From Bryobacteraceae bacterium (GTDB lineage: Bacteria; Acidobacteriota; Terriglobia; Bryobacterales; Bryobacteraceae): a stretch of 41,792 bases of DNA. The stretch lies in assembly GCA_035469225.1 (NCBI GenBank), contig DATIRX010000218.1:1-41792 (forward strand), given 5' to 3'. The position numbers were made by a program, and so were the translations under genes. Shown here one piece after another: positions 2,557 to 35,401 of this stretch. The notes beneath the pieces are model-generated. The model was not told where the DNA came from and made no database searches. It saw only the letters and a list, made by a program, of their open reading frames with translations. Position 1 is the first letter of the stretch. Each line of letters begins with the position of its first letter.

Positions 2557-3855
2557 TTATTTGCCGGTGTAGCTGACCCGCCAGATCACTTTCGCGCCGT
2601 CATCGGTGACCAGCATCGAACCGTCCGGCGCTACAGCGATACCTACCGGACGGCCCCACAGCACCCCGTTGGTCGCGAAGCCGGTGAGGAAATCCTCATA
2701 CACTCCGCTGGCCCGTCCCCTTTCGAGCGGAATGCGGATGACTTCGTGGCCCGAGCCCGCGGCGTGATTCCAGGAACCATGCTCGGCCGCAAAGGCATCA
2801 CCGGAATACGCCGCGGGGAACTGTTTCCCGTCGTAGAAAGCCATCCCCAGCGAGGCGCTGTGCGGCTGGACCAGCACGTCCGGAACAGTCACTTTCCCTC
2901 TCAGCTCGGGATGCTTGCCCTCATGCTTGGGATCGTAATTCCCGCCGATGTAAAACCAGGGCCAGCCGTAGAAACCGCCCCGCTCCACATGGGTCACGTA
3001 ATCGGGAACCAGATTGTCGCCGTACGTATCCCGCTCATTGATAGACGTCCAGACTTCGCCGGTTTCAGGATGGATCGCCAGCCCGACGGGGTTACGAATG
3101 CCCGAGGCGTAGATGCCCACGAACTTGCCCTCGGGAGTGTATTCGAGAATGTTGGCGCGATGGAACTCCCGCTCGTTATCGTCGTTGTTTGACGCCGAGC
3201 CGACCGCCACGAACAAGCTCTTGCCATCCTTGGAGAAAACAATGTCGCGCGTGGAGTGGCCGCCCGCCGGAATATCCGAAATCAGCGTCTCAGCAGGACC
3301 CGTGGCTTTCAGGTCGCCATTCTTGTAAGGGAAGCGGACCAGCGTAGTGGTGTTGCTCACATACACCCACTGTGGCGTCGGGCCAGGCGGATAGAAGTTG
3401 ATCCCGAACGCATTCGGCAGGTTCGCGAACACAGACGTTTGTTGCGGTTTCCCGTCGGCGGTCACGCCGCGAAAGATCTTGACGGCGCCCGCGGCCCCGC
3501 CACTGGTTTCGGCAACGAAGATGTCGCCATTCGGGGCCCTGCGCATCTGGCGGGGATTCGTAAGTCCTTCGCCGACGTACATTCCAACCTTGAATCCCGC
3601 GGGCGCTTGCGGCATCGCATCCGCCGGACGAACCGCGCCGCGTCCGCCGGGAGTGTTCCCAGAAGGCGTGTCGCCGGGCTTCGGAAGATCCTTGGCAGTG
3701 ATTTTGCGGGCTACGCCGGGTTTCAGCGAAGCCGTGTTGCTGAAAGCCTGTTTCCCGGCGAGAATCGTCATGCCGTCCGTCTTGGCGGCATACAGCATCA
3801 GGCTGGCGGAGACGGCCAATAATCCAACCGGGAGGATCCATTGAAGTTTTTTCAT
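2557..3855 (-). CDS. PQQ-dependent sugar (glucose/sorbosone) dehydrogenase family, exported
   Basis: Signal peptide MKKLQWILPVGLLAVSASLMLYA. The six-bladed propeller family pattern is present (GLTNPRQMRRAPNGDIFVAE, GIRNPVGLAIHPETGEVWTSINERD, GGFYGWPW, GRPVGIAVAPDGSMLVTDD). Confidence 0.85.
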   Translation of the reverse strand: MKKLQWILPVGLLAVSASLMLYAAKTDGMTILAGKQAFSNTASLKPGVARKITAKDLPKPGDTPSGNTPGGRGAVRPADAMPQAPAGFKVGMYVGEGLTNPRQMRRAPNGDIFVAETSGGAAGAVKIFRGVTADGKPQQTSVFANLPNAFGINFYPPGPTPQWVYVSNTTTLVRFPYKNGDLKATGPAETLISDIPAGGHSTRDIVFSKDGKSLFVAVGSASNNDDNEREFHRANILEYTPEGKFVGIYASGIRNPVGLAIHPETGEVWTSINERDTYGDNLVPDYVTHVERGGFYGWPWFYIGGNYDPKHEGKHPELRGKVTVPDVLVQPHSASLGMAFYDGKQFPAAYSGDAFAAEHGSWNHAAGSGHEVIRIPLERGRASGVYEDFLTGFATNGVLWGRPVGIAVAPDGSMLVTDDGAKVIWRVSYTGK

Positions 3856-7779: not shown

Positions 7780-9132
7780 CTAAGGACGCAGCCGATCGAA
7801 GTAATCCAGGAGCGCATCGCGGCCGGCGTCGTCGATGCGGGCGCCCCAGCCGGTCATTTTATTGATCTCGGCGGTCCACTGCGCGCGCGTGAGGCGCTGC
7901 TGCCGGATGACGTCGTCGTTATGACAGAGCAGGCAATTGTTAAATGCAGCGGGCGGCCGTTGGGAAGCGTAGGCTTGCTCAGGAATCGCCGGCTTTGGAA
8001 CTGCGCTTCCCACGTTCACGTGCACGCGCTGAACCGCGTTCCAGAGATATCCGGACTGGTTCCATTCCTGATCCAGCGGCTGGGTGTTCCCCGCTGCATC
8101 GCGCGCCCGAGCCAGAATCGTAAAGTACGAAGCTTGCTGCGGAGTCCAGGCGAATTCCCACTGTCGCCAGCCGAAGCGTGTCCGCTGGCTGGCAATTAGA
8201 GACGCCGGCTTCCACACACGTCCGCCATCGATGCTGACGTCGACGGCAGCAACCGGATCGGCTCCCCAAGCCATCCCGCGAATCATCGTGGGGCTGCCGG
8301 GATCGAGCTGCGCGCCATCCAGCGGAGACGCGATGACGCTCTTGACCCGCAGGTTGGTGACCGGCCGCATGCGATCCAGAGGCACGGCGACGCCCGGAGC
8401 GACGGGCCGGCCGGGGTGGCGGTATGCGCTCTTCATCCAGAAGCCGTCGTGTTCCTGGTCGAGAACGCGGATGGACGTCAGCCACTTGGTCCAGGAATCG
8501 CCGGCCCAGCCGGGCGCCACGACGCGCAAGGGGAATCCATGTTTTACCGGCAGCGCCTCGCCGTTCATGTCGTATGCCAGAAGCGTGTTAGGGTCGAGTG
8601 CTTTTTCGAGCGGAAGCGAACGCTGGAAGTCCGGCATGCTGCCCAGGGGCACATCGGCGCCGTCCAAAAGGATTTCGCGGGCGGAAGCTTTCAGGCCGGC
8701 GCGTTTGAGCACGTCGGCCAGACGAACTCCGCGCCAGCGCGCATTCCCCACGGCTCCGTGGCCCCATTGCAGGCCGGGGACAGGAGGCTCAAAGAAAGCC
8801 CGCCCGTTTCCGGCGCATTCGAGCACGCTGACGAGTTCCGCCGCGGGCAGCCGTTTCAGATCATCCAGGGTCAGAGCCAGAGGCGACGCGACGGAGCCGC
8901 CTACGTTCAGACGCCATTCGCTGAGGTTGACCGTGGGAACGTAGACGTGCGCGCGAACGAAAAAATGTTCGGCTGGAGTGAGGTAGTCCGAAAAGCCGGA
9001 CAGCGGCATTTCGAGATCCTCCGGGCGGACCGAGCGACTGAGCATGTCGCGCTTGGGACGATCTTCCCCTCGAAGCACGGCAGCAGCGGCGGCGAGGAAC
9101 AGGAAGTCACGGCGGCGGAGGCGCACGCACAT
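7780..9132 (-). CDS. Tat-exported sulfite-oxidase-family molybdopterin oxidoreductase with a C-terminal haem c domain
   Basis: The chosen ATG at 9132 gives MCVRLRRRDFLF, a twin-arginine signal. The Mo-ligand Cys motif is LECAGNGR and the C-terminal haem motif is CLLCH. The 70 extra upstream codons in the ORF track overlap thrC and are rejected. Confidence 0.85.
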   Translation of the reverse strand: MCVRLRRRDFLFLAAAAAVLRGEDRPKRDMLSRSVRPEDLEMPLSGFSDYLTPAEHFFVRAHVYVPTVNLSEWRLNVGGSVASPLALTLDDLKRLPAAELVSVLECAGNGRAFFEPPVPGLQWGHGAVGNARWRGVRLADVLKRAGLKASAREILLDGADVPLGSMPDFQRSLPLEKALDPNTLLAYDMNGEALPVKHGFPLRVVAPGWAGDSWTKWLTSIRVLDQEHDGFWMKSAYRHPGRPVAPGVAVPLDRMRPVTNLRVKSVIASPLDGAQLDPGSPTMIRGMAWGADPVAAVDVSIDGGRVWKPASLIASQRTRFGWRQWEFAWTPQQASYFTILARARDAAGNTQPLDQEWNQSGYLWNAVQRVHVNVGSAVPKPAIPEQAYASQRPPAAFNNCLLCHNDDVIRQQRLTRAQWTAEINKMTGWGARIDDAGRDALLDYFDRLRP

Positions 9133-9142
9133 ATTGTAAACG

Positions 9143-10321
9143 TCAGGCCTGCGTGCGCGTTGCGTAAGCGTCGAGGTACTTGAGGCCCGAGCCCGTATTG
9201 TAGAGAACGATGCGGTCGGTGGGCGCGAGGAATCCATTCGCGAGAAGCTTGCGGGCAGCTGGGATGCAGGCCGCGCCTTCAGGAGCCGCGAACACCCCTT
9301 CGCGCGATGCGAGCTCGCGGCCGCCCGCCAGAATGTCTTCATCGCTGACGGCGATCGCCGTGCCCGCGCTCGCGCGGAGGATGTTCAGAATGAGCACGTC
9401 GCCCAGCGGCTTGGGAACGCGCAAACCCGCGGCCGCGGTGGAGGCGTTCTGCCAGAATTCGGAATGGGACGCGTTCTGCTCGAAGGCGCGGACGATGGGC
9501 TGGCAGCCTTCCGCCTGAACCGCGATCATCTTCGGGCGCTCACCGCCGATCCAGCCCAGCTGTTCGAGCTCGTCGAAGGCTTTCCACATGCCAATCAGTC
9601 CGACACCTCCTCCGGTGGGATAAAAGATGGCATCGGGCAGCTCCCAGTGGAACTGTTCGGCGACTTCATAACCCATGGTCTTTTTGCCTTCGACCCGATA
9701 GGGCTCCTTGAGCGTGCTCATATCGAACCAGCCTTCGCTTTCCTTACGCTCGCCGACGATGCGGGCGCAATCGCTGATGAGACCGTCCACCAGGGTCACG
9801 TGCGCGCCCAGCGTCTGGCATTCGATGTAATTGGCCTGGGGAACATCTTTCGGCATGAAAATGTGGGCTTCGATTCCACCGGCCGCGGCATAGGCGGCTG
9901 CGGCGCTGGCGGCGTTGCCGGCTGAGGGAATGGCGATCTTGCGGATACCCAGCTCTCGCGCCATGGTGATCGCCGTGGTCATGCCCCGGGCTTTGAAAGA
10001 TGCGGTGGGATTGAGGCCCTCGTCCTTCACCCACAACTGTTGCGCGCCTATCCCAGATCCCAAACGATGTGCCCGGATCAGCGGCGTCATGCCTTCCCCG
10101 AGAGAAACAATCGAGGCCGCGTGTTGCACCGGAAGAACGGGCAGATAGCGCCACAGATCCGTGCGCGCGGATCGCACCATCTCGCGGGTCCACGTGGCTT
10201 TCACCGCGGGAAGATCGTAGCGGACGTACAGCGTCCCGCCGCAGGCGCACAAGTTGTGCACCTGGTTGGCCGCCCAGCGGCGGGCGCACAGGCTGCATTC
10301 CAGATGAGTGACGTTAGGCAT
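9143..10321 (-). CDS. thrC: Threonine synthase (short form with N-terminal zinc ribbon)
   Basis: CSLCARRW...CACGG Cys4 ribbon, PLP-lysine motif SFKARGM, and SAGNAASAAAAYAA, as expected for the PLP fold type II family. Confidence 0.85.
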   Translation of the reverse strand: MPNVTHLECSLCARRWAANQVHNLCACGGTLYVRYDLPAVKATWTREMVRSARTDLWRYLPVLPVQHAASIVSLGEGMTPLIRAHRLGSGIGAQQLWVKDEGLNPTASFKARGMTTAITMARELGIRKIAIPSAGNAASAAAAYAAAGGIEAHIFMPKDVPQANYIECQTLGAHVTLVDGLISDCARIVGERKESEGWFDMSTLKEPYRVEGKKTMGYEVAEQFHWELPDAIFYPTGGGVGLIGMWKAFDELEQLGWIGGERPKMIAVQAEGCQPIVRAFEQNASHSEFWQNASTAAAGLRVPKPLGDVLILNILRASAGTAIAVSDEDILAGGRELASREGVFAAPEGAACIPAARKLLANGFLAPTDRIVLYNTGSGLKYLDAYATRTQA

Positions 10322-19044: not shown

Positions 19045-19596
19045 TTAGAGTCTATCAGGCCCGTTCGAAGGAGTGCCTAGAGGGAGCCCTGGGTAGGTAA
19101 CCAATTCACCTTCCACCCTCGCGAAAGGCGTGTAGGCATGAGGTTTCCGGCTGGCGGCGCTGAGAATGTGTTGGACTTCGATCCCCCGCGCCGCCAAAGC
19201 ATCGGCGATCAGCGAGCGGTGACATCGCCAGGGGACTGCTTCCGCGCACATGATCACGGTCGGGCAAGCGGCTGCGAGATCGATGAGCTTGGCCAGACCC
19301 TCCCGGAAGCCGTCTGTCTGCATGTAATCGGCGTAGCCTCGAAAGCTGGCGTTCTTCCAGCCGGTATTGATGGAGTCCTTCCGGGCGTGCCGGAGCCCGC
19401 CCAGACCGGGCAGATGCACGTACTGAATTCCCTGCTGCCCGAGCGAAGCCGCCAGTTCATCCTGCCCGAATTGAGGATTCCGGCGCGATTTCGGAATCGT
19501 GCGGACATCGATGAGCTGCCGGATGCCATGCGCCCCCAGTATTTCGAGGAATTTCTCGATGGGAAGCGTCGAGTGGCCGATGGTGAAGATCGTCAG
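19045..19596 (-). CDS. DUF488 family protein, probably initiating at CTG 19596
   Basis: The ORF track starts at GTG 19419 (124 aa). However, the same frame stays open up to 19647 and encodes the canonical DUF488 N-terminus (L/M)TIFTIGHSTLPIEKFLEILGAHGIRQLIDVRTIPKSRRNPQF. Confidence 0.6.
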   Translation of the reverse strand: MTIFTIGHSTLPIEKFLEILGAHGIRQLIDVRTIPKSRRNPQFGQDELAASLGQQGIQYVHLPGLGGLRHARKDSINTGWKNASFRGYADYMQTDGFREGLAKLIDLAAACPTVIMCAEAVPWRCHRSLIADALAARGIEVQHILSAASRKPHAYTPFARVEGELVTYPGLPLGTPSNGPDRL

Positions 19597-20336
19597 GGTT
19601 TTACTACCGTGCGCAGATACGAAAGAATCGCCCCCAACTCGGCGTCGCTATAGGAACCGATCACGCCCGAGTGCCGCCAGGTGCTGCCGTCTCGCGTTTG
19701 AACCGTCGCAGGCGATTCGGTTCGCAGCACGGGAGGCGAGCTGGTGAGATCGTAAAACAGCACCGAGCCGGCTTTCTTGCCGACCACCAGGGCAGGCATG
19801 GATTCGCTGCCGATGCTGACGGTGGAAACCTGCGGAGTAGCAAGCGCTTTTAGCGCCGCGGCATCGAAGGGCACTTTGGCGATGGGTGTCGCGACGGCGA
19901 TACCGAGCCCTCCGATCTCATGACAGGTCGAGCAGCGGCCAAAGCCGCGGACAGCGTCCGAGAACAGAGCACGGCCGCGGGCGGCGTCGCCTGTCAGCTT
20001 CGCGGCAGGTGCGCCCGGGGGGCCGCTGTTTGCTACGAGATTCGCAATACCGTTGAGGGACGCCACATAGGCCACCACGGCCGTGGCGTCCGCCCGGGAA
20101 AGCGTGGTTCCAAACGCGGGCATGGCCGTTCCGGGAACGCCGTTGCGGACCGTGTTGGCGATAAAGGCTTGATCGAATCCGCGGGCGGCAATGCGCGGCG
20201 CTCCGCCGTTGGTTCCCCGAGCGCCGTGGCAGTATCCGGTGGCGCAGGACTTTTGGAACACCGCCTCACCCTGCTTGACGATGTCCTGTGCGGGGGTGAG
20301 CACGGCTACCGCCAGAAACAACCAGCCGCGCTTCAT
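19593..20336 (-). CDS. Exported two-domain c-type cytochrome
   Basis: The internal ATG at 20336 gives the signal peptide MKRGWLFLAVAVLTPAQ. Haem motifs are CATGYCH (CX4CH) and CSTCH, with GTAMPAF as a candidate Met-ligand motif. ATGA overlap with the PQQ dehydrogenase stop codon. Confidence 0.75.
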   Translation of the reverse strand: MKRGWLFLAVAVLTPAQDIVKQGEAVFQKSCATGYCHGARGTNGGAPRIAARGFDQAFIANTVRNGVPGTAMPAFGTTLSRADATAVVAYVASLNGIANLVANSGPPGAPAAKLTGDAARGRALFSDAVRGFGRCSTCHEIGGLGIAVATPIAKVPFDAAALKALATPQVSTVSIGSESMPALVVGKKAGSVLFYDLTSSPPVLRTESPATVQTRDGSTWRHSGVIGSYSDAELGAILSYLRTVVKP

Positions 20337-22021
20337 CGCGATCCCTCCGGCAAGGCAAATACGACTAACGTGGACCCCTGGCGGAAGCTCTCTTCGGGAA
20401 AGAGCCCGACGGCCGCGCCTCCGACCAATGACTGCTGGAATCCGGTGGTCACCGCGATGTATTGCCGGCCGTTGACCGAGTAGGAGATCGAGCTGCCGCG
20501 GTTCCCGGCGCCGGTCTGGAAGCTCCACAGCTTGTTGCCGCTGCGGGCATCCAATGCGAAGAAGTTGCCTTCAGGATCGCCGGTGAAGACCAGATCGCCG
20601 GCCGTGGCGAGCATGGACGACATCAGAACGAACTTGTAAGGCAGACTCCAGATGCGCTTGCCGGTGACGGGATCCCAAGCGTCCACATGACTGTAGGTAG
20701 TGCGGTTGGGCGGGAGCTTCATGGGGAAATCGCCATTCATGAAGAAGCGGCCCTCGCTGGGCTTGGTGTCGTTAGGCGTGATGTCGGTGCAGATTTCGTT
20801 GGTGGGCGTGTAGAGAAATCCGGTACGCGGCGAGTAGGCCATGGAGTTCCAGCTCTTGGCGCCGGCCGCGCTGGGACAGAAGTTCTTCGTTTTGCCCATC
20901 TCGGGCTCATTGCGGCCGACCAGCTTGCCGTCTTCGGTGACGCCCGAGATCCAGTTGGAAATCTCTGGCACGTTGAAGGAGCTGAGAAATTCTCCGGTGA
21001 CGCGGTCGAACACGAACGTCAGGCCGCTCTTGTTCATGTGAACCAGGATCTTGCGCATCTGGCCTTTGATCTGACGATCCATTAAGAGGACTTCGTAGGA
21101 GGCATCGAAATCCCAGACGTCGTCGGGAACCTCCTGGAAATACCAGCGCAGCTTGCCGGTGTCGGCGTCGAGCGCGACCATGCTGGCGGTGTAGAGGTTG
21201 ACGTCCTTGGATTTGTTAGTACCCGCCGCGACGCGGTCGGCGTCGTAGAAATCCGCTGCGGCGTTGCCGGTCCCCCAATAGACCAGGTTGAGGTCGGGAT
21301 CGAAGGAGCCGGTGAGCCAGGGCGAGCCGCCGCCGAAGCGCCAGCTATCCCCTTTCCATGTTTCATGGCCCTTTTCGCCGGGACCGGGCACGACATACCA
21401 GCGCCAGGCCGAGCGGCCGGTCTTCGTGTAGAAGGCGGTGAGATAGCCTCGATGCGCCTGATCGCCGCCGTTGCCGCCGACGATCACCTTGTCCTTGACG
21501 ATGAGGGGGGCGCCGGTGATGTTGCAGCCGCACTGCTTGGGATCGTCCACGCTGACTTTCCAGACTTCCCGGCCGGTTTTCTGGTCGAGCGCTACGACGA
21601 AGTTATCTTTCGTTCCGAAGATGACCTTTCCATCGCCGACGGCGACCCCGCGATTCTGAATGAAATCGGAGTGGCTGCCGGCGATGCCGGGACGCACGGC
21701 GGGATAGCGGTACTGCCAGATCACGGTCCCCTTGGCGGCATCCAGCGCGAAGACGCGCGCGCCGGCGGAGATGAGATACAGGACGCCATCGGCCACGATA
21801 GGCGTGGAGCCGAGGTTCTCCGTGTAGTCTCCGGTTTGGAAGATCCAGGCGGGAAGCAGGTTTTTGACGTTGGATGTATTGACCTGATCGAGCGCGCTAT
21901 AGCGCCAGGAGAATTGCGTGCCGCCATAATGCGGCCAGTCGGCACGCGTGGGCGCGGCGTCCTGGGCGGAGAGCGGCACCAGGATCGGCGCAAGGATGAG
22001 CAGCGAGTTCAATAGACGCAT
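20333..22021 (-). CDS. PQQ-dependent dehydrogenase, methanol/ethanol family-like, exported
   Basis: Signal peptide MRLLNSLLILAPILVPLSAQ. Eight-bladed propeller W-motif repeats. Catalytic region DVWDFDAS. N-terminus reads DWPHYGGTQFSWRYSALDQVN. Confidence 0.85.
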   Translation of the reverse strand: MRLLNSLLILAPILVPLSAQDAAPTRADWPHYGGTQFSWRYSALDQVNTSNVKNLLPAWIFQTGDYTENLGSTPIVADGVLYLISAGARVFALDAAKGTVIWQYRYPAVRPGIAGSHSDFIQNRGVAVGDGKVIFGTKDNFVVALDQKTGREVWKVSVDDPKQCGCNITGAPLIVKDKVIVGGNGGDQAHRGYLTAFYTKTGRSAWRWYVVPGPGEKGHETWKGDSWRFGGGSPWLTGSFDPDLNLVYWGTGNAAADFYDADRVAAGTNKSKDVNLYTASMVALDADTGKLRWYFQEVPDDVWDFDASYEVLLMDRQIKGQMRKILVHMNKSGLTFVFDRVTGEFLSSFNVPEISNWISGVTEDGKLVGRNEPEMGKTKNFCPSAAGAKSWNSMAYSPRTGFLYTPTNEICTDITPNDTKPSEGRFFMNGDFPMKLPPNRTTYSHVDAWDPVTGKRIWSLPYKFVLMSSMLATAGDLVFTGDPEGNFFALDARSGNKLWSFQTGAGNRGSSISYSVNGRQYIAVTTGFQQSLVGGAAVGLFPEESFRQGSTLVVFALPEGSR

Positions 22022-22076: not shown

Positions 22077-22889
22077 ATGAATACACTACGCCGCGGTCCG
22101 GCTACCGCCGGTATGCTGTTGGCCGCTGTTTTCACATTCGCACCTCATCCCCTTCGCGCCGCCGATGCCCTCACGTGGCAGCAAAAAGAGGAGTTTCTTA
22201 GCAAGGCTAAGATCGTTCAATCCAAAGAGGCCAAGAAGGGGGTTACGGGAACTTCCCGCGTTACCCTCACCGATGGGACCATTACGCACGACGCAAGTGT
22301 GCAGACGCTCGACGAGTCCAAGCCGTTCTTCCTGGGAGAGATCGGCTTTAAGGACTCCTACAAGTTCAACATCGCCGCATGGAAACTGGCCCGGTTGCTC
22401 GGGCTGGACGACATGGTTGCTCCTTCCGTGAAGCGCACGTACGAAGGGAAGACGGGCTCCTATACCTGGTGGGTCGAAGACGTCATGATGGATGAGACGG
22501 ATCGGAGATCCAAGAATCTGCAGGCTCCCGACGCAACCGTCTGGCAGAACGAAAACAACATCAAGCAGGTCTTCGATCAGTTGATCTTCAATGTGGACCG
22601 CAATCAGACCAATATGCTGATCGACAAAAACTGGCATCTTTGGATGATTGACCATGGACGTTCGTTTCGTACTCTTAAGACGCTCAAGGACGCCAGTACC
22701 CTCAAGGGAATCGATCGGGATATGCTGGCCAAAATGAAGCTGCTGGACGAAGCGACTTTGACCCGGGAATTCGGGCGGGACGTCACTAAGAACGAGATCC
22801 AGGGCTTGCTGGCGCGGCGCGATTTGATCGTCCAGTTCTTCGAAGGCAAGGGTTCGGGCGTAGTGTTCGGGCGGGCCGCGCGGAATTAG
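22077..22889 (+). CDS. Hypothetical exported protein with PI3K/PI4K-like (atypical kinase) catalytic motifs
   Basis: The ATG at 22077 gives a signal-like N-terminus, MNTLRRGPATAGMLLAAVFTFAPHPLRA. The motifs are FNVDRNQTNMLID and WMIDHGRSF. Confidence 0.6.
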   Translation: MNTLRRGPATAGMLLAAVFTFAPHPLRAADALTWQQKEEFLSKAKIVQSKEAKKGVTGTSRVTLTDGTITHDASVQTLDESKPFFLGEIGFKDSYKFNIAAWKLARLLGLDDMVAPSVKRTYEGKTGSYTWWVEDVMMDETDRRSKNLQAPDATVWQNENNIKQVFDQLIFNVDRNQTNMLIDKNWHLWMIDHGRSFRTLKTLKDASTLKGIDRDMLAKMKLLDEATLTREFGRDVTKNEIQGLLARRDLIVQFFEGKGSGVVFGRAARN

Positions 22890-23957: not shown

Positions 23958-24338
23958 TTACTTGCCGGCTTCGGCCTTGAGCTGCTGCACCAGCGGAATT
24001 TCCTTGGCTTCCGGCGAATCCGGCAGCGTTTTGATATACGCCCAGATGTCGGCCAGCTGCGCGTCCGACAGAACCTTCGCCGAGTACGACGGCATCTGAT
24101 TGGTGCCCGGAGAGCGCACGTATGCGGTGAACACCGGCGCCAACATCTTCATCGGAACCAGCCGCTTGCCCGGACCGTTCTGACCTGAAAATCCGTGGCA
24201 GGCGTAGCAGCTGTAATCGACAAACATTTTGCCGCCTTTTTTCGCGTCGCCCTGCTGTCCGTAGGCGGCCACCGTCAGCATCGCCAGGGCGGCCGCGGGC
24301 GCAAGCATTCCGAATACCAGCTTCTTCATAAGTCTCAT
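23958..24338 (-). CDS. Exported monohaem class I cytochrome c (126 aa)
   Basis: Signal peptide MRLMKKLVFGMLAPAAALAMLTVAAYG, haem motif CYACH, and distal Met candidate NQMPSY. The ATG overlaps the stop codon of the ThDP enzyme gene (ATGA). Confidence 0.75.
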   Translation of the reverse strand: MRLMKKLVFGMLAPAAALAMLTVAAYGQQGDAKKGGKMFVDYSCYACHGFSGQNGPGKRLVPMKMLAPVFTAYVRSPGTNQMPSYSAKVLSDAQLADIWAYIKTLPDSPEAKEIPLVQQLKAEAGK

Positions 24339-26239
24339 CCTCGCGGCTGCGTCACTACGTCGATCAATACAGGCTCGCCCTTCTTCACCCGCTCGATGCC
24401 GCGCTGGAGGGCCGGAGCAAGATCCTTCGGATCCGTAATGGGACCCTCCGCGTATAGCCCATAGCCTTTGGCGATCGACGCGTAGTTGATGTCCGGATCC
24501 CACAGCTTGGTCCCGATCCCGGCCCGCTCCGCGCCGCGATTGTGGACGCTGGCCATCTGCTCGACGAACATCACTTCCTGGTGGTAGCCGCGGTTGTTGT
24601 GCATGATGCTCAAGAGCGGAATGCGATGGTGCGCCGCAGTCCAGAACACACCGGGCGAATAGTTGAAATCGCCGTCGGTCTGGATGTTGATCGAGAGCCG
24701 TCCATATTTGCGATTGGCCAGCGCGGCCCCCACCGAAGCGGGAGCGCCGTAACCCATGCCGCCGGCTCCCTGGCCGCCGATGTAGTGATAATGCTTCTCC
24801 ATGTTCCAAAGGCGATTCGGCCAATTGGCGACAAAACCCTGCGGCGATACGAACGACCAGTCTTCGTTCTTGATCAGCGGCCACAGCTCGGCGGCGATGC
24901 GCCCCACGCTCACCGGGCTCGCGTTCCAGCCATACTGGAGGGCTTCCACATCCGCCTCGCGATTCTTGCGATGCGCCTCGGCAAACTTCGCGCCGCGATC
25001 CTTGAACGCACGCTGGCGGTCCGCGGTGATCAGCTTCTTGCAGGCCTCGATCAGATACGGCAAAGTGGCCTCGGCATCCGCGCCGATATCCAGATCGATG
25101 TCCGCGTAATGCCCGAAATCCTGGATATTGCTCTTGTGCGCCAGCGAAACGGAAGAAATGTGGATAACCTTGCCGTTGGCCGGACGCGCGGTGCGAGCCA
25201 CCTGGAGAATGTCCTGGACCTCCAGCGCCAGCGTGAGATCGGGCTGATATCCCGCGCCGCCGTTGCCTGCCAGCGGATGGCGGTTGGGAAAGTTCATGCG
25301 CTCGCGATTGTTGACCGGCGCCTGCAGAAGTTCCGCCAGCTCGATCAGGAGCTTGACACCTTCCGGAGTGCGGGCGTAGCGCTCCGGGATGATCATGGGA
25401 CGCTCTGCCGCCACCAGCATCCGCGCGGCTTCCGCCACCGCGCCCATATCGCCCGCCGGAGGCGACGTCAGCACCAGCTTGGGAATGCGCGGGCGCTGCC
25501 CTTCCATCGCATGCGACTGGATTTCGTTGCTGGCCACGATCAGCACGGGGCCCATGGGCGGCGTCATCGCGATTTTGTAGGCGCGCACCGCGGACTCGGC
25601 GAATGCGCCCAGTGAATACGGCTGGTCGTCCCACTTGGTGTAATCGCGAACCAGGGCGCCCAAATCCTGCGCGCTGTGGAAGGTCTGAACGCCGGGGTTG
25701 CGCTCGGCGCCATCGGCGTGATTACCCACCACCATATAGACCGGCACGCGATCGCAATAGGCGTTATAAATCGCCATGCCGGCGTGCTGCAGGCCGATGT
25801 CGCCGTGGATCAGCGCCATCATGGGCTTGCCCTCTACCTTGGCGTAGCCGTGGGCCATGGCTACGGCGTTCTCCTCGTGGGTGCAGGTGAGGAACTCCGG
25901 CATTTTGTTGTCGCCGTAATTGATCAGCGATTCGTGCAGCGATTCGAAGGTGGACCCGGGGTTGGAGCCGAGATATTCGATGTTGAGCGTCTTCAGCACG
26001 TCGACCATGAAGTCGGAGCCGGGGTTTTCGATGATGCGGGAGCTGGCTGCCGGGCGCGCTGCGCCGGTTTCGCGCGCCACGGCCGCTCCGCTGGGAGCCT
26101 GGGCGCCTCTTGGCGCCGGCTGCTGGGCCCTTTCTTGAGCATGGGCGAGTTGGGGCTTCGCAGCCAAAACGGCTGCTCCCGCTGCCGCACCTTTCAAGAA
26201 ACCGCGACGTCCGACGGAAGGTTTTGTGGACTTAGCCAT
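24335..26239 (-). CDS. Tat-exported thiamine diphosphate-dependent enzyme (acetolactate synthase/pyruvate oxidase superfamily)
   Basis: Tat signal SVGRRGFLKGAAAGAAVLAAKPQLAHA, catalytic-Glu motif THEENAVAMAHGYA, and ThDP-Mg motif TDGDFNY...IMHNN. Confidence 0.85.
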   Translation of the reverse strand: MAKSTKPSVGRRGFLKGAAAGAAVLAAKPQLAHAQERAQQPAPRGAQAPSGAAVARETGAARPAASSRIIENPGSDFMVDVLKTLNIEYLGSNPGSTFESLHESLINYGDNKMPEFLTCTHEENAVAMAHGYAKVEGKPMMALIHGDIGLQHAGMAIYNAYCDRVPVYMVVGNHADGAERNPGVQTFHSAQDLGALVRDYTKWDDQPYSLGAFAESAVRAYKIAMTPPMGPVLIVASNEIQSHAMEGQRPRIPKLVLTSPPAGDMGAVAEAARMLVAAERPMIIPERYARTPEGVKLLIELAELLQAPVNNRERMNFPNRHPLAGNGGAGYQPDLTLALEVQDILQVARTARPANGKVIHISSVSLAHKSNIQDFGHYADIDLDIGADAEATLPYLIEACKKLITADRQRAFKDRGAKFAEAHRKNREADVEALQYGWNASPVSVGRIAAELWPLIKNEDWSFVSPQGFVANWPNRLWNMEKHYHYIGGQGAGGMGYGAPASVGAALANRKYGRLSINIQTDGDFNYSPGVFWTAAHHRIPLLSIMHNNRGYHQEVMFVEQMASVHNRGAERAGIGTKLWDPDINYASIAKGYGLYAEGPITDPKDLAPALQRGIERVKKGEPVLIDVVTQPRG

Positions 26240-30456: not shown

Positions 30457-30954
30457 ATGATGTCTCTTCTCGAAATCGCCAAGTGGCTCCAGGAAACTCC
30501 AGGCAGTATTTCCATCCGGGAGTCGATTCTGATGTTCCCGGTGCTGGAGGGTTCTCATCTTTTGGGGATCGCTGTCTCGGCCGGAACCATCGCCATCTCG
30601 GATCTCCGCATGATGGGGCTCATCTTCAAGAAGGAGTCGGCCTCCGACGTCTTTCATCAGCTCATCCCGTGGACGAGCGCGGGTTTCGCGATGATGATCA
30701 TCACCGGAATGCTGCTGCTGTGGTCCGAACCCGTCAAGCTCTACAACAGCATCTGGTTCCGCTATAAAGTGCTGTTCCTGATTCTGGCCGGGCTGAACGT
30801 GTTGATCTTCCACTCCTCCAGGGTCTATCGCACCATCCGTGAATGGGAATGGGACGCGAACCCTCCGCGGGCCGCGAAGATCGCCGGCTGGGTGTCGCTG
30901 ATCAGCTGGGGCATCGTGATTATCGCCGGCAGGACCACGGCGTACAACTTCTAA
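30457..30954 (+). CDS. 4-TM membrane protein, type 1 (uncharacterised; H-x8-G-x5-DLR motif)
   Basis: Four hydrophobic helices. Shares WLQxT..IRES.L.FP, the H...DLR motif and LLLW with 34874-35401. Confidence 0.75.
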   Translation: MMSLLEIAKWLQETPGSISIRESILMFPVLEGSHLLGIAVSAGTIAISDLRMMGLIFKKESASDVFHQLIPWTSAGFAMMIITGMLLLWSEPVKLYNSIWFRYKVLFLILAGLNVLIFHSSRVYRTIREWEWDANPPRAAKIAGWVSLISWGIVIIAGRTTAYNF

Positions 30955-30960
30955 AAACCC

Positions 30961-31443
30961 ATGTGGCAATCCTTCAAACCGTTCTTTGAGTGGAGTGACA
31001 AGATTTGGCTGGGCCAGGCGATCTCGTCCACCGTGTGGGCCTTTCCGGTGATCGAAACGATCCATATTCTGGCCCTGACGATTATGTTCGGCGCCATCGT
31101 GATCATCGATTTGCGGATGATGGGCGTCGGCTTGAAGAAGCAATCGGTGGCGTTGCTGTCCAGGAGCCTGGACCCTTACATGACCACCGGGCTGGTAATC
31201 ATGCTGGCCACCGGGTTCATGCTGTTCACCTCGGAAGCCATGAAGTGCTTCGTCAACGATGGGTTCAAGTTCAAGATGGCGGTGCTGTTTCCTGCCGTCA
31301 TTTTCCAGTTCACCCTATTCCGCTGGGTGACGCACAAGACCGAAGACAAGCGCCCGATGCTGCTGGGCTGGGTCGTCGCGCTGCTATCGCTCACGCTATG
31401 GTTCGGCGTCGGCGTCGGCGGCCGGGCCATCGGATTTGTATAA
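30961..31443 (+). CDS. 4-TM membrane protein, type 2 (uncharacterised; H-x8-G-x5-DLR motif)
   Basis: Lies 6 nt after the previous gene. Shares WAFPV.E..HI...DLR..G.G.KK and a C-terminal GFV/AFV with 34408-34860. Confidence 0.75.
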   Translation: MWQSFKPFFEWSDKIWLGQAISSTVWAFPVIETIHILALTIMFGAIVIIDLRMMGVGLKKQSVALLSRSLDPYMTTGLVIMLATGFMLFTSEAMKCFVNDGFKFKMAVLFPAVIFQFTLFRWVTHKTEDKRPMLLGWVVALLSLTLWFGVGVGGRAIGFV

Positions 31444-31479
31444 TCGCAGTCGAGGGTTAAGCGGGGAGGACCGCGCGAA

Positions 31480-31908
31480 GTGTACCGAGGGATGAACGCC
31501 AGGTCGGCCGGCAGCACGGTCATACTCACGCTGGCCCTGTGCTCGGCGCCTTTGCTTGCCCATCACGCCTTTTCAGCGGTGTTCGATCTAGCCAAACAGA
31601 GAGACTTCAAGGGAACCATTTCCAGAGTCGAGTGGTTGAACCCGCACGCGCGTTTCCTCCTGGATGTCCCGCAATCAGGCGGAAAGACCATAAGCTGGGA
31701 GTTCGAGCTGGGCAGTCCCAACGCCCTCATGCAGCATGGCTGGAACAGGTACACGCTGAAGAAAGGTGACGTGGTTACGGTGACGGCTGTTCTGGCCCGG
31801 GACGGATCGAACTATGCGCATGCGCGCGCAGTCACGCTGGCGGGCGGCAGCCGGATTTGCGACTACGACCGGTTCAATGGCCCCGAGTGGTCGTGCCCCG
31901 AGAAGTAA
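31480..31908 (+). CDS. Small exported protein (DUF6152-like), predicted mature N-terminus His-His
   Basis: The GTG at 31480 is preceded by GGGGAGGA; the ATG at 31492 is an alternative start. The signal peptide ends CSAPLLA, followed by HHAFSAVFD...VEWLNPHARFLLDV. Confidence 0.7.
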   Translation: MYRGMNARSAGSTVILTLALCSAPLLAHHAFSAVFDLAKQRDFKGTISRVEWLNPHARFLLDVPQSGGKTISWEFELGSPNALMQHGWNRYTLKKGDVVTVTAVLARDGSNYAHARAVTLAGGSRICDYDRFNGPEWSCPEK

Positions 31909-31936
31909 CCGCAGCGCAACCTACTGAAACCACGAT

Positions 31937-31969
31937 AGTCACGACCCGGTCATTGACCGGCATGTGACT
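31937..31969. promoter_or_regulatory. Nested 33-nt palindrome AGTCAC-N3-CCGGTCA-T-TGACCGG-N3-GTGACT, operator-like motif copy 2
   Basis: 13 of 16 arm positions are complementary, and the inner 7-bp arms are perfect. The motif lies upstream of the TonB receptor ATG at 32014 (44 nt after the palindrome end, 54 nt after the conserved block). Confidence 0.4.
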
Positions 31970-32013
31970 TGTCTCCGGCGAGGATCAGGCCGCTCTCATG
32001 TTAGGCTCCCCGC

Positions 32014-34320
32014 ATGTCTATCTTCCAGGGGTACTTGTGTCTGGTTTTCTCTGCAGGGATCGGTCTGGCCCAGCAGCTTTCCATTTCCGGGACGGTTCGC
32101 GACGCCAGCGGCGTGGTGCCGGACGCATCCGTGACGCTTCGCGCCGGAGGGAATGCCCTTCGGACGACCACCACCGACGGCATGGGCCACTACGCCTTCG
32201 AGGGGTTGCGGGCAAGCTACTACGAGCTTTCGTTCGCGAAGTCCGGATTCGACCCGGTCACGCGAAATCTGGACCTCGGCGTCAATTCGGGCACTGTGGA
32301 TGTGACGCTGGCGGTAGGAGCAGTATCGTCCACCGTCACGGTAACGGACGTGGCCGGAAAAGCGACGGCTTCGCGTCTGGATATTCCGGATGAAGACTTG
32401 CCTGTGCAGGTCAGCTCCATTCCAAAGGAGCTCCTCCAGGAACAGGGCGTCAATGACATGGTCACGGCGTTGCGGAACGCCTCGGGGGTCCAGGCGCAGC
32501 GCTTCTATGGCGTCTACGAGCAGTACACCATCCGTGGCTTCAATGCGGGCGACGTGATGCTGGTGGACGGAATGCGGACGGAGGCCATCTTGAACCGCTA
32601 CAACACGCAACTGAACAATGTGGAGAGCGTGGAAATCCTGAAGGGGCCGAGTTCCGTGCTCTACGGCGGCGAGGCCGTGGTTGGCGCGATTAACGTGATC
32701 CGCAAGAAACCGCAGGGGCAGCGCGCGTACGACCTGTTGTACAAGGGCGGCCGGTTCAACACGCACCAGGCGGGCGGCGGCGCCACCGGACCTCTCTTTG
32801 GCAGTAACTCCTGGCTCTACCGGGCGGACGTGAGCCAGGACTATTCGGACGGCTGGCGGGGCGCGGGGGCGAACCGCTTCAACGCATCGCCGTCCCTAAC
32901 CTGGCTGATGAGCGAGCGATCGCGCGTCACGGTTCACCAGTCGTTCATCCGGGACAACTACAAAGGCGACGGCGGCGTGCCGGTCCGTTGGACCACGGCG
33001 CCGGGTTTCGATCCCAGTCGCCGGTTCAGCACACCGCAGGATTTCGCTCTGATCGAAGACTCGCAGACGCACGTCCTGTTCAATTTCAGCCTGTCCCCCT
33101 CATGGGAATTCCGCGACGGCTTCCTGATGCGGCGTACCAGCGAGGAATACTTCATCACGGAAGGTTCCCTGGGCTTCGATCCGGTAGCCAATGTGATCAC
33201 CCGCGAGGGCCTTCAATTCCACCATACCCGCCGGCCCAAGGTGAACCAGGCCGAACTCGTAGGACGCTTCAACTTCCTGAACATGCATCACACGGTGCTC
33301 ATGGGTTACGACTACCGCGACTTCTACACCAAGACCGGCACCACGGATGGCGGCGGTTTCTTCGAATTCACGCCCATCAGCCTGGCCGATTTCAAGGAAA
33401 CTCAGCCGCCCGTCGATCCGTTCAACATCGTGCGCTACACCTACTCTGCCAACCGGACGAACGCATTCTTTTGGCAGGATCAGATCGACCTCGGGCGCAA
33501 GATCAAGATCAACATCGGGGGCCGCTTCGACGATTTTGATCGCCACACCCATCGCATTTTCCTGACAGCTCCCAGCACGCTTACCAGGGTCCAGGCTGTG
33601 CATCAGAGTGCCTACACGTATCGGGCCGGCATCGTCTACGAACCTGTGACAGGCCATCAAGTATACGCGAACACGTCCAGTTCATTTACTCCGGTGCAGG
33701 ATTTTCTAACCGGCCTCGAGCTGAAGCCGCGCTATGGCCGCGGCTACGAAGCGGGCTATCGATGGCAGGGCTGGCAGGGCCGCATCCAGACCAGCATCGC
33801 GGCGTATCACATTGAACAGAACAATCTCAGCTTCACTACGTCTCCCGGAACGGTGGTTCAGGCCGGCAAGCAGACCTCCAAGGGAATCGACCTGGACATC
33901 AACGCGGATCTCAGCCATGGCACCCGGCTGGTCCTCAACTACGGGTACACCGTTCCGAAGTTCAACCAGTTCCTAGATCCCGATGACGGAGATTTGGCCG
34001 GGAACCTGCCCCGTTTTACGCAGAGGCAGGCGCTGAACGTGTGGCTACACAAGGCCTGGACTTCGGGATTCACCGCAGGCGTTGGCACGCGATACCTGGG
34101 CCCGATGTTCACCAACAATACCAACACTATCCTGTTGGGCGGCTGGACGACGTTCACCGGATCGGCCGGATACCGCAGGGAATCCTGGGAGTGGAACGTG
34201 CATGCGGAGAACCTGCTGAACCGGGAGCGCTACTTCCTCGGTTCGGATTACAGCAACCAGGTGTACCCGGGTGCTCCGATCAACGTTTTCGCCTCCGTGC
34301 GGTTTAGATTTAACCCTTAG
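32014..34320 (+). CDS. TonB-dependent receptor with N-terminal carboxypeptidase-regulatory-like domain
   Basis: Signal peptide, CarboxypepD_reg-like segment ISGTVRDASGVVPDASVTL...GHYAFEGL, plug motifs TIRGF and VESVEILKGPSSVLYGGEAVVGAINV, and a long beta-barrel. Confidence 0.88.
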   Translation: MSIFQGYLCLVFSAGIGLAQQLSISGTVRDASGVVPDASVTLRAGGNALRTTTTDGMGHYAFEGLRASYYELSFAKSGFDPVTRNLDLGVNSGTVDVTLAVGAVSSTVTVTDVAGKATASRLDIPDEDLPVQVSSIPKELLQEQGVNDMVTALRNASGVQAQRFYGVYEQYTIRGFNAGDVMLVDGMRTEAILNRYNTQLNNVESVEILKGPSSVLYGGEAVVGAINVIRKKPQGQRAYDLLYKGGRFNTHQAGGGATGPLFGSNSWLYRADVSQDYSDGWRGAGANRFNASPSLTWLMSERSRVTVHQSFIRDNYKGDGGVPVRWTTAPGFDPSRRFSTPQDFALIEDSQTHVLFNFSLSPSWEFRDGFLMRRTSEEYFITEGSLGFDPVANVITREGLQFHHTRRPKVNQAELVGRFNFLNMHHTVLMGYDYRDFYTKTGTTDGGGFFEFTPISLADFKETQPPVDPFNIVRYTYSANRTNAFFWQDQIDLGRKIKINIGGRFDDFDRHTHRIFLTAPSTLTRVQAVHQSAYTYRAGIVYEPVTGHQVYANTSSSFTPVQDFLTGLELKPRYGRGYEAGYRWQGWQGRIQTSIAAYHIEQNNLSFTTSPGTVVQAGKQTSKGIDLDINADLSHGTRLVLNYGYTVPKFNQFLDPDDGDLAGNLPRFTQRQALNVWLHKAWTSGFTAGVGTRYLGPMFTNNTNTILLGGWTTFTGSAGYRRESWEWNVHAENLLNRERYFLGSDYSNQVYPGAPINVFASVRFRFNP

Positions 34321-34322
34321 CC

Positions 34323-34338
34323 GTCCGCGGATGCGGAC
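34323..34338 (+). terminator. Hairpin GUCCGC-GGAU-GCGGAC 2 nt after the receptor stop codon
   Basis: Perfect 6-bp stem followed by AAAAC with no U-tract. It may only attenuate readthrough into 34408. Confidence 0.3.
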
Positions 34339-34407
34339 AAAACTCCGCCCGCACGTCACGTTTGTTATGATCGGTTCCGGTTTGTTGTCCGAAAGGTTGA
34401 ATCATTC

Positions 34408-34860
34408 ATGGCATTCTTTTTGGCTTACGATGTAGCAAACAATCCGCTGAATACAAATGAATGGGCGTTCCCGGTGTGTGAAGTGCTGCATATCATCGGG
34501 TTCGCCATTGCGATCGGAACCATCACCATGGTGGATCTGCGGCTTCTGGGGATCGGGATGAAGAAGGAAACGCCCGCGGACCTGGTAAGAGACACGGCTC
34601 CATGGACGCTGGGCGGCCTGGCACTGGTGCTGATCTCGGGTCCGCTGATTTTCTCCTCCGATCCAAATCTGTATCTGCACAACCTGTCGTTCCGGTTCAA
34701 GATTACAGCACTGGTTTTGGCGATCATCTTTAATTACACGATTCACCGCTGGGTAGCGCTGAAACACACCTCGGGCGGCGTGGCAGCTCTCACGGGCTTA
34801 GTCTCACTCCTCTTGTGGGTCAGCGTGGTGTTCGGCGGAATCTTCATAGCGTTCGTCTAA
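34408..34860 (+). CDS. 4-TM membrane protein, type 2 paralogue
   Basis: See 30961-31443. Motifs are WAFPVCEVLHIIGFAIAIGTITMVDLRLLGIGMKK and a C-terminal AFV. Confidence 0.75.
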   Translation: MAFFLAYDVANNPLNTNEWAFPVCEVLHIIGFAIAIGTITMVDLRLLGIGMKKETPADLVRDTAPWTLGGLALVLISGPLIFSSDPNLYLHNLSFRFKITALVLAIIFNYTIHRWVALKHTSGGVAALTGLVSLLLWVSVVFGGIFIAFV

Positions 34861-34873
34861 AGGGAGAAATCCG

Positions 34874-35401
34874 ATGCCTCCAGAATTCATCTTATGGCTT
34901 CAAAATACGTCGATCGCTACGGCCATTCGCGAGTCGGCACTGGTGTTTCCGATCATCCTGTCCCTGCATTTAACAGGGATGGGGCTGTTTGGCGGAATGA
35001 TCCTGATGACCGATCTGCGCATCCTGGGACTGGCGATGACCAAGCGCCCGGTTTCAGAAGTAGTGAACGGCCTGCGGCCGTGGAAGCACCTGGGGCTTAC
35101 CCTGACGGCCACCTGCGGAATCCTGCTGTTGTGGTGCAAGGTGGCGATCTATTACCCCAATCCATTTCTTCGGATCAAGCTGGCGCTGTTCGTGCTGATC
35201 CTGATTCACGCGCTGGTATTCCGGAGCGTTTATCGCAACATTACGGATTTGGATGGCAGTCCGGTGATTCCCGGGCGGGCGAAGGCGGCTGCGGTGCTCT
35301 CGATGGTCCTGTGGATCGGTGTAGTAACCTCGGGCCGTTGGATCGGCTATTGGGAGCCCAAGGGCGAGCCGGCGAACGCGGCCCGGGTGGTCAACCAGTA
35401 G
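34874..35401 (+). CDS. 4-TM membrane protein, type 1 paralogue
   Basis: See 30457-30954. Motif is WLQNTSIATAIRESALVFPIILSLHLTGMGLFGGMILMTDLR. An AGGGAG Shine-Dalgarno sequence lies upstream. Confidence 0.75.
   Translation: MPPEFILWLQNTSIATAIRESALVFPIILSLHLTGMGLFGGMILMTDLRILGLAMTKRPVSEVVNGLRPWKHLGLTLTATCGILLLWCKVAIYYPNPFLRIKLALFVLILIHALVFRSVYRNITDLDGSPVIPGRAKAAAVLSMVLWIGVVTSGRWIGYWEPKGEPANAARVVNQ

Follow-up and report, generated by a model that had tools for sequence, protein, structure and literature searches.

Genes at the locus

A stretch of 41,792 nucleotides from a soil Bryobacteraceae bacterium of the Acidobacteriota (assembly GCA_035469225.1, contig DATIRX010000218.1, positions 1 to 41,792), here called the window, carries a gene for a pyrroloquinoline quinone (PQQ) dehydrogenase that overlaps a gene for a c-type cytochrome, which in turn overlaps a gene for a DUF488 protein. 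An earlier, sequence-only reading of this DNA had described the dehydrogenase as a lanthanide-type enzyme devoid of the usual vicinal cysteine ring. The open reading frame (ORF) and the WDFD, GSHSDFIQNRGVAV and GGDQAHRG motifs on which that description was built are all present where it had placed them. An exact-protein look-up gave no existing record for the dehydrogenase of the window. The three genes are:

20333-22021, minus strand: PQQ dehydrogenase gene, 562 amino acids (PF01011 and TIGR03075 matches, phmmer search of the PDB, Foldseek)
19593-20336, minus strand: gene for a secreted c-type cytochrome of 247 amino acids with two haem motifs (PF13442)
19045-19596, minus strand: DUF488 gene, 183 amino acids, CTG start (PF04343, E = 9e-34)

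The ATG of the cytochrome gene overlaps the TGA of the dehydrogenase gene (ATGA). This junction had been noticed earlier, and the pairing that goes with it is conserved: a cytochrome gene lies immediately downstream of the dehydrogenase gene in ca. 66 of 83 related loci (ca. 80%), the other neighbors differing. A scan of the DNA for promoters and terminators gave matches at the level of shuffled sequence.

Family, fold and export

The dehydrogenase belongs to the PQQ methanol/ethanol dehydrogenase family and has an eight-bladed propeller fold. It scored 502.4 bits with the NCBIfam model TIGR03075 (PQQ-dependent dehydrogenase, methanol/ethanol family; cut-off 480.05) and 286.9 bits with the Pfam model PF01011 (PQQ; E = 5e-85, cut-off 26.7). 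The next-best NCBIfam model, TIGR04528 (acido-empty-quinoprotein group A), gave 391 bits. Searching the PDB with phmmer produced matches that were almost level, led by XoxF (6dam, E = 3e-96) and a quinohaemoprotein (1kb0, 5e-95) and followed by 1kv9 (9e-89), PedH (6zcw, 1e-86) and MxaF (ca. 1e-72). An AlphaFold2 model built with 46 homologues had a predicted template modeling (pTM) score of 0.81. When it was compared by Foldseek with 30 chains of PQQ alcohol and methanol dehydrogenases, template modeling (TM) scores of 0.79-0.85 were obtained, the top match being PedH (6zcw, TM 0.82). The PDB matches and the model thus identify an eight-bladed quinoprotein that is about equidistant from each characterized subgroup. 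A non-enzymatic propeller of the BamB type was considered and rejected, as BamB models scored far under their cut-offs and the TM score to BamB-type structures was ca. 0.47.

Both the dehydrogenase and the adjoining cytochrome start with a signal peptide as read from their sequences. In the dehydrogenase it is the following element, and homology to solved enzymes begins past it, at about residue 23-28.

21965-22021, minus strand: Sec-type signal peptide, MRLLNSLLILAPILVPLSA (amino acids 1-19; read from the sequence, cleavage site inferred)

Metal site and PQQ pocket

To locate the active-site residues the protein was placed in a multiple alignment with six solved references (4mae, 6dam, 1g72, 4tqo, 1kb0 and 1kv9), family members, sister clusters and one annotated XoxF5. 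The reference sequences were near-full-length and taken from HMMER alignments; their transcribed lengths agree with the printed alignment coordinates. The following positions emerged:

21104-21115, minus strand: W303-D304-F305-D306, with the catalytic base Asp304 and the lanthanide-type Asp306 (alignment with the references)
21461-21463, minus strand: D187, replacing the metal-binding Glu (E172 in SolV XoxF, E197 in 6dam; alignment)
21263-21265, minus strand: N253, metal-coordinating Asn (N256 in SolV XoxF, N255 in W3A1; alignment)
21029-21031, minus strand: K331, the Arg/Lys position of the PQQ pocket (Arg324 in W3A1; alignment)
20789-20878, minus strand: C382 and C411, two invariant cysteines that align with the conserved distant cysteine pair of methanol dehydrogenases (XoxF/MxaF)

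D304 aligns with the catalytic base, which is D299 in SolV XoxF (4mae) and D297 in W3A1, and D306 aligns with the lanthanide Asp D301 of SolV XoxF. The placement of D306 in the metal site, proposed earlier from an alignment by eye, therefore stands in a proper multiple alignment. Its column holds Asp in all XoxF sequences, Ala in MxaF (1g72 and 4tqo) and Thr in 1kb0 and 1kv9. The metal Glu of the G-x-E-x-G-V-R-G segment had been seen to appear as Asp, and the alignment confirms this residue as D187, in ungapped register relative to the downstream R-G (segment GGDQAHRG, amino acids 185-192). E172 and N256 of SolV XoxF are taken to be metal ligands after Pol et al. 2014, and a Glu and an Asn are what the sequence holds at these numbers. 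D299 and D301 of the same enzyme are lanthanide ligands (PMC8546591), and at the position equivalent to D306 a Ser in PedE is set against an Asp in PedH (PMC5487730). Among 144 representatives and references compared, the Asp-for-Glu exchange occurs in 27 and is common in ring-less uncharacterized clusters.

The PQQ pocket retains four of the six contacts that we assume for W3A1, namely the stacking Trp, Arg109, Thr153, Arg/Lys324, Glu55 and Asn387. The equivalents kept are R124 (Arg109), T169 (Thr153), W235 (stacking Trp237) and K331 (Arg324). At the last position a Lys is found as in the ethanol-type alcohol dehydrogenases 1kb0 and 1kv9, whereas XoxF and MxaF have Arg. C382 and C411 are invariant in an alignment of 46 sequences with a mean column identity of 76% and presumably form a disulfide.

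Missing cysteine ring and loop cysteine pair

In canonical enzymes the vicinal Cys-Cys ring lies over PQQ. Two elements of the window protein bear on this feature:

21665-21670, minus strand: S118-D119 at the canonical vicinal Cys-Cys position (C103-C104 in W3A1, C104-C105 in 4mae; alignment)
21524-21535, minus strand: Q163-C164-G165-C166, an invariant loop cysteine pair (alignment and conservation counts)

The ring region reads GSHSDFIQNRGVAV (amino acids 115-128), and with S118-D119 in place of the two cysteines the ring is indeed absent, as had been noted by eye. Cys-Cys was found at the ring position in 0 of 84 sequences, a conservation set consisting of the window protein and 83 related loci. 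In ExaA the ring is reported to be indispensable for passing electrons efficiently to cytochrome c550 (Mennenga 2009, cited in both PMC8546591 and PMC5487730). With the ring missing, electrons would have to leave PQQ by a remodeled route, and its requirement in ExaA makes a replacement disulfide at C164-C166 an attractive hypothesis.

C164 and C166 lie five and three residues upstream of the PQQ-binding T169 and are conserved in 84 of 84 sequences of the conservation set and in 121 of 121 database homologues. The QCGC loop appears to occupy the same relative place, one blade on, as the canonical ring before Arg109. A cysteine pair in this loop is present in 9 of 62 ring-less and in 0 of 82 ring-bearing sequences among the 144 representatives and references (Fisher p = 4e-4, uncorrected for relatedness), with the pairs at no fewer than three separate positions in the tree. 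We nevertheless regard the proposal that the CxC pair forms a disulfide replacing the ring in electron transfer as tentative, and rather doubtful at present.

Cysteine pairs were also seen outside the clade of the window protein. The ring-less clusters P0158, P0221 and P0209 have a Cx4-7C arrangement in this same loop, ahead of the PQQ-binding Thr, which hints at repeated, independent acquisition.

Conservation and phylogenetic position

A large protein database contains more than 7800 homologues of the dehydrogenase at E < 1e-20. The top 120 have 72-95% identity to the window protein; those with a named source belong to metagenome-assembled genomes (MAGs) of Bryobacteraceae, Acidobacteriota or Terriglobia and bear the names alcohol dehydrogenase (cytochrome c) or PQQ-dependent dehydrogenase. 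When one genome per species was scanned, 80 loci were obtained, all from soil MAGs, at 66-93% identity, and nearly all of these carry the labels Bryobacterales, Bryobacteraceae or Terriglobia. Several genomes encode two or three paralogues.

Like the loop cysteines, N253, D304, D306 and K331 are present in all members of the 84-sequence set, and D187 is found in 83. The active-site and PQQ-pocket residues in general are invariant or nearly so in this set, and likewise in the 121 database homologues. Such invariance indicates that the active site is under selection and that its features are not due to chance.

Among representatives clustered at 50% identity, the nearest full-length neighbors are just 41-48% identical to the window protein. 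In a neighbor-joining tree of 147 sequences the family groups with clusters P0121, P0123, P0126, P0125 and P0128 and with a protein from a Skermanella plasmid, away from both the XoxF/MxaF and the quinohaemoprotein groups. The divergent clade suspected earlier is thus recovered as a deep clade of its own. Its members have in common the absence of the ring, the DxD motif (E-L-D in P0123), the pocket Lys and, except in P0123, the Asp-for-Glu exchange. A loop cysteine pair occurs in all clusters of the clade but P0125, as CxC in four and as CxxC in P0128 and the Skermanella protein. Within the clade the TIGR03075 cut-off is exceeded by the window family and P0121 alone; the TIGR04528 cut-off is reached by no member, the sister clusters scoring 319-439 bits. 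The supplementary tree of PMC11996626 includes other proteins of one relevant MAG, AA64, and does not include the orthologue of the window protein. No published clade name that fits the clade was found in the passages searched.

Several relatives deserve separate mention. A subgroup of paralogues (loop QCGCS, metal segment GDNAHR), with L064, L066, L068, L069, L072, L073, L075, L076, L079 and L080 among its members, is 68-70% identical to the window protein and keeps all active-site states; both paralogue types occur together in several genomes. At L072 the dehydrogenase gene is followed by an unrelated ORF, by eye a luciferase-like monooxygenase. The Skermanella rosea plasmid pSR-3 (L085, 3905-6897) encodes a sister-clade enzyme, 41% identical, on an alphaproteobacterial plasmid, with a CSGC loop, Asp for Glu and DxD. 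Downstream follow a gene for a small cytochrome with a normal CxxCH motif and a substrate-binding-protein gene, in an order like that of xoxF-G-J. This enzyme comes from a cultured organism and is a possible experimental model for the clade. Finally, a MAG labeled Bordetella parapertussis (L012, CALQCC020000010.1) has a 78%-identical enzyme with its cytochrome. Because the pair was otherwise found almost only in MAGs with Acidobacteriota labels, this label looks wrong.

Partner cytochrome

The cytochrome gene encodes three elements that characterize the protein:

20226-20246, minus strand: C31-A-T-G-Y-C36-H37, an atypical CX4CH haem motif in the N-terminal class I domain (alignment, conservation)
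20121-20123, minus strand: M72, likely distal haem ligand (invariant in 39 homologues)
19920-19934, minus strand: C135-S-T-C138-H139, a second haem motif, of canonical form, in the C-terminal part (conservation)

The class I domain is covered by PF13442 (E = 3e-20, amino acids 20-91). Compared with the CxxCH of CcoP, of the cytochrome of p-cresol methylhydroxylase and of the Skermanella partner (CVYCH), the first motif has a two-residue insertion. The combination of CxxGYCH and C[SA]TCH occurs in nearly all complete cytochrome ORFs of the dehydrogenase loci, and 39 homologues show no variation at C31, G34, Y35, C36, H37, M72, C135, C138, H139 or H222. A CX4CH sequence is a recognized non-canonical haem c site in multihaem cytochromes (e.g. 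PMC11492766); the literature searched contained no mention of it in the partner of a quinoprotein.

About 1800 homologues of the cytochrome were found, under the database family name mono/diheme cytochrome c, and for the second haem motif there is a weak match to TIGR02603 and to the dihaem Kustd1711. Its AlphaFold2 model was poor, with a predicted local distance difference test (pLDDT) score of 58. The C-terminal part is beta-rich in this model, with which Foldseek retrieved nothing below E = 0.06.

The cytochrome had been put forward as a plausible XoxG-like acceptor, and on the point of kinship the results speak against this. The PedF model scored 20.1 bits on it as compared to 122, and no model for a cytochrome cL or a methanol-related cytochrome was among the NCBIfam matches. 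BLASTP to XoxG of Sagittula, for which we took the 'c-type cytochrome, methanol metabolism-related' encoded beside xoxF5, gave E = 0.009 in the haem region only. From these comparisons the protein appears to be at most a functional analogue of XoxG, and not XoxG by descent. It is nonetheless quite probably the electron acceptor of the dehydrogenase encoded next to it.

Proposed function and alternatives

We propose that the enzyme acts in the periplasm as a catalytic PQQ dehydrogenase of the alcohol dehydrogenase type, the likely substrate being an alcohol, an aldehyde or a sugar-like hydroxyl compound. A light lanthanide would be bound by D187, N253, D304 and D306 together with PQQ, and D304 would serve as catalytic base. 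The two electrons of PQQ would be passed singly to the co-translated two-haem cytochrome c and from there to the respiratory chain, with C164-x-C166 in the adjacent loop as the best candidate for a ring substitute. PQQ would probably be taken up from the surroundings, or else synthesized by means of genes located in another part of the genome. We are confident that the protein is a catalytic quinoprotein. A lanthanide as the active-site metal is predicted by the sequence signature and seems the likelier choice. The proposal as a whole, an active periplasmic enzyme with a lanthanide that delivers electrons to the co-encoded dihaem cytochrome, is favored with reasonable but by no means strong confidence.

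Several observations weigh against this proposal. An Asp for the metal Glu is seen in no structurally known lanthanide enzyme, and the DxD rule may for that reason not transfer to the dehydrogenase. Two canonical PQQ contacts are gone, Glu55 and Asn387 of W3A1 being replaced by G71 and S390 in the alignment. The pLDDT of the dehydrogenase model was moderate (75), and below 50 for residues 161-169, which include the CxC loop. The paralogue subgroup, 13 loci in all, keeps the CxC pair without an adjacent cytochrome. The flanks of 80 loci (ca. 620 ORFs, clustered), in which no neighbor but the cytochrome is widely shared, yield no clue to the substrate. As to the cofactor, a Pfam scan of the ca. 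40 ORFs of the window found no pqq genes, in agreement with the sequence-only reading, and no importer of the PqqU type. The nearby TonB-dependent receptor (32014-34320) is of the siderophore type, with 213 bits for TIGR01783 and 44 bits for the PqqU model (cut-off 1200). It is common for Gram-negative bacteria to scavenge PQQ that they do not synthesize, and Acidobacteria without PqqU may depend on endogenous synthesis or diffusion (PMC12124388).

The main rival is an active PQQ dehydrogenase that works with Ca2+ or another non-lanthanide metal, in which Asp306 compensates for the charge or reach lost with the Asp-for-Glu exchange. It draws on that exchange, which is found in 83 of 84 sequences, unlike every solved lanthanide enzyme, and which is common in ring-less uncharacterized clusters (27 of the 144 sequences compared); the DxD rule itself was established only in Glu-containing, ring-bearing enzymes. 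On the other hand, every tested Asp-type enzyme is lanthanide-dependent and it is the Ala, Ser and Thr types that use calcium (PMC5487730, PMC8546591, PMC11996626). With D187, D304 and D306 the site moreover retains three carboxylates next to the Asn, a set well suited to a hard trivalent cation. Binding of La has been shown for a six-bladed PQQ protein of Bryobacteraceae (bioRxiv 10.64898/2026.07.10.737718), so the lineage handles lanthanides. We therefore consider the use of calcium or another such metal unlikely, though it deserves to be kept in view: if true, metagenomic surveys based on DxD overcount lanthanide enzymes.

According to a second alternative the PQQ, cytochrome and DUF488 genes form one functional module, with DUF488 taking part in function or maturation. 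The earlier reading had the coupling run onward to DUF488, and at the level of the DNA this is correct: the CTG of the DUF488 gene (19594-19596) overlaps the TGA of the cytochrome gene (CTGA), no ATG, GTG or TTG lies ahead of the conserved N-terminus TIFTIGHS, and PF04343 is matched over profile positions 2-121 of 121 when the protein is read from CTG, but over 49-121 from the first canonical codon. The identical CTGA junction occurs in five close relatives (L004, L006, L007, L008 and L038), where the ATGA junction is conserved as well, which suggests a conserved non-canonical start or termination-reinitiation. As a conserved operon partner, however, DUF488 did not hold up. Only the seven closest relatives (at least 86% identity) have it after the cytochrome, and it is missing from ca. 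59 other loci that have the enzyme-cytochrome pair; in L071 it is located elsewhere and has its own GTG start. It has no signal peptide and should be cytoplasmic, unlike the exported dehydrogenase and cytochrome. The close relatives that have it also share an upstream M50 protease gene and two downstream VWA genes, which points to plain synteny. DUF488 is thus best described as genus-level synteny with tight packing and probably has no functional part in the module, and we hold a three-gene unit to be very unlikely.

The weakest alternative, an 'empty' non-catalytic homologue in a binding or scaffold role for which no PQQ is made, as in the acido-empty-quinoproteins, would agree with the partial TIGR04528 match (391 bits), the loss of the ring and of two PQQ contacts and the lack of pqq genes among the window ORFs scanned, but is highly improbable given that the protein passes TIGR03075 but falls far short of the 650 bits required by TIGR04528, that 84 sequences show no change, or almost none, in the catalytic Asp, the metal ligands and the stacking Trp, Arg, Thr and Lys, which is unexpected without catalysis, that a dedicated cytochrome c is conserved alongside, and that scavenging of PQQ is common (PMC12124388).

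Returning to the lanthanide dehydrogenase proposed here, one may go further and see in it a distinct quinoprotein architecture, in which a CxC or CxxC redox disulfide stands in for the ring, the metal is held in an Asp/Asn/Asp/Asp site and a dihaem CX4CH cytochrome has co-evolved with the enzyme. We offer this extension as a conjecture of modest probability. If true, it would represent a second solution for electrons leaving PQQ, and the shorter Asp ligand might shift metal selectivity.

Relation to known enzymes

PedH/ExaF (6ZCW) resembles the window enzyme in its eight-bladed PQQ propeller, the Asp two positions after the catalytic Asp and the Lys at the PQQ pocket, and in being periplasmic and soluble with a c-type cytochrome as the expected acceptor. 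The window enzyme differs in that it is only ca. 34% identical, lacks the ring, has Asp for the metal Glu, has lost the Glu55 equivalent and possesses the extra CxC loop. Furthermore, its partner is a 247-residue cytochrome with two motifs instead of PedF, and it belongs to a separate clade in the neighbor-joining tree.

With XoxF1-5 (4MAE, 6DAM, 6OC5, 7O6Z) the enzyme shares DxD, the Asn ligand and a cytochrome gene directly downstream. It differs by having Lys331 and not Arg, by the lack of the ring and the Asp-for-Glu exchange, and by the absence of equivalents of Trp467 and Trp531, which are specific to methanol dehydrogenases. No gene for a XoxJ-type binding protein follows the cytochrome gene, and the cytochrome is unrelated to XoxG. 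Assignment to XoxF3 or another XoxF type was rejected in view of Lys331, the non-XoxG cytochrome and the position in the tree apart from 4mae, 6dam, the XoxF5 of Sagittula and MxaF.

The type II quinohaemoprotein alcohol dehydrogenases (1KB0, 1KV9, 1YIQ) show comparable similarity, have the pocket Lys and combine one PQQ domain with one dedicated cytochrome c unit. In these enzymes, however, the unit is a fused one-haem domain, whereas here it is encoded by a separate overlapping gene and has two haem motifs. They also carry Thr (the calcium type), Glu and the Cys-Cys ring, unlike the window enzyme.

TIGR04528 likewise comprises full-length acidobacterial homologues, and its top-scoring clusters P0137, P0154 and P0130 are also ring-less. 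These clusters differ in having H-D-W-D, Arg and no loop cysteine pair, and membership of the window protein was dismissed at 391 bits against the cut-off of 650.

Lanthanide-dependent quinoproteins are, to our knowledge, the only established lanthanide enzymes, and the structural and kinetic knowledge that we found in the literature all comes from the ring-bearing, Glu-containing XoxF, ExaF and PedH types. DxD-type lanthanide PQQ dehydrogenases have been predicted in bulk from Acidobacteria and other soil and ocean phyla, in one survey with up to 70 per genome (PMC11996626, PMC10875860, bioRxiv 10.64898/2026.07.10.737718). The lanthanide-type signature is therefore not new in itself, and a DxD enzyme in Acidobacteria is less unusual than the earlier reading had assumed. 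The combination of ring loss, Asp for Glu, CxC loop and CX4CH cytochrome was not found in the parts of these three sources covered by a limited literature search.

What we describe is an abundant, uncharacterized side branch of a known enzyme family and not a new kind of system. The clade is abundant in soil Acidobacteria and departs in two active-site features that were supposed to be constant, while the rest is strictly selected. It bears on whether DxD alone predicts lanthanide use, which is the assumption behind large metagenomic surveys, on how electrons leave PQQ without a Cys-Cys ring, and on which carbon substrates a dominant soil phylum oxidizes in the periplasm.

Occurrence and other genes in the window

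The window sequence was found across many soil metagenomes, and in metatranscriptome assemblies from sediment and rhizosphere there are short contigs that match parts of each of the three genes at 95-99% identity. These contigs are fragmentary, most of them stem from relatives, and DNA may be present in the libraries; they are weak evidence of transcription and do not prove co-transcription.

Upstream of the PQQ gene, a 269-residue ORF with a faint atypical-kinase match (22080-22889, plus strand) lies between it and the M50 protease gene. The ORF is absent from syntenic relatives, in which the M50 gene abuts the PQQ gene, and is probably a lineage-specific insertion.

Other redox proteins are encoded in the window as well. 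A second putative quinoprotein is a 432-residue six-bladed propeller of the glucose/sorbosone dehydrogenase type (2557-3855, minus strand; PF07995, E = 1e-21). Lanthanide binding by a Bryobacteraceae protein of this family was recently reported (bioRxiv 10.64898/2026.07.10.737718). A thiamine-pyrophosphate enzyme of 634 residues (24335-26239, minus strand) has the twin-arginine export leader GRRGFLKGAAAGAAVLAA, and the 3' end of its gene overlaps by ca. 19 nucleotides a gene for a c-type cytochrome of 131 residues (23958-24353, minus strand). It is uncommon for an exported thiamine-pyrophosphate enzyme to be paired with a cytochrome c, and the two may form a further dehydrogenase-cytochrome pair in the periplasm. 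A SorA-like molybdopterin sulfite dehydrogenase (7780-9342, minus strand; 332 bits, cut-off 600) matches the SorB cytochrome subunit in its C-terminal stretch and is apparently a fusion of catalytic and cytochrome parts. Four genes for DUF6644 membrane proteins and one DUF6152 gene flank that of the siderophore-type TonB-dependent receptor (30457-35401, plus strand), and a role of this receptor in metal uptake, lanthanides included, is possible.

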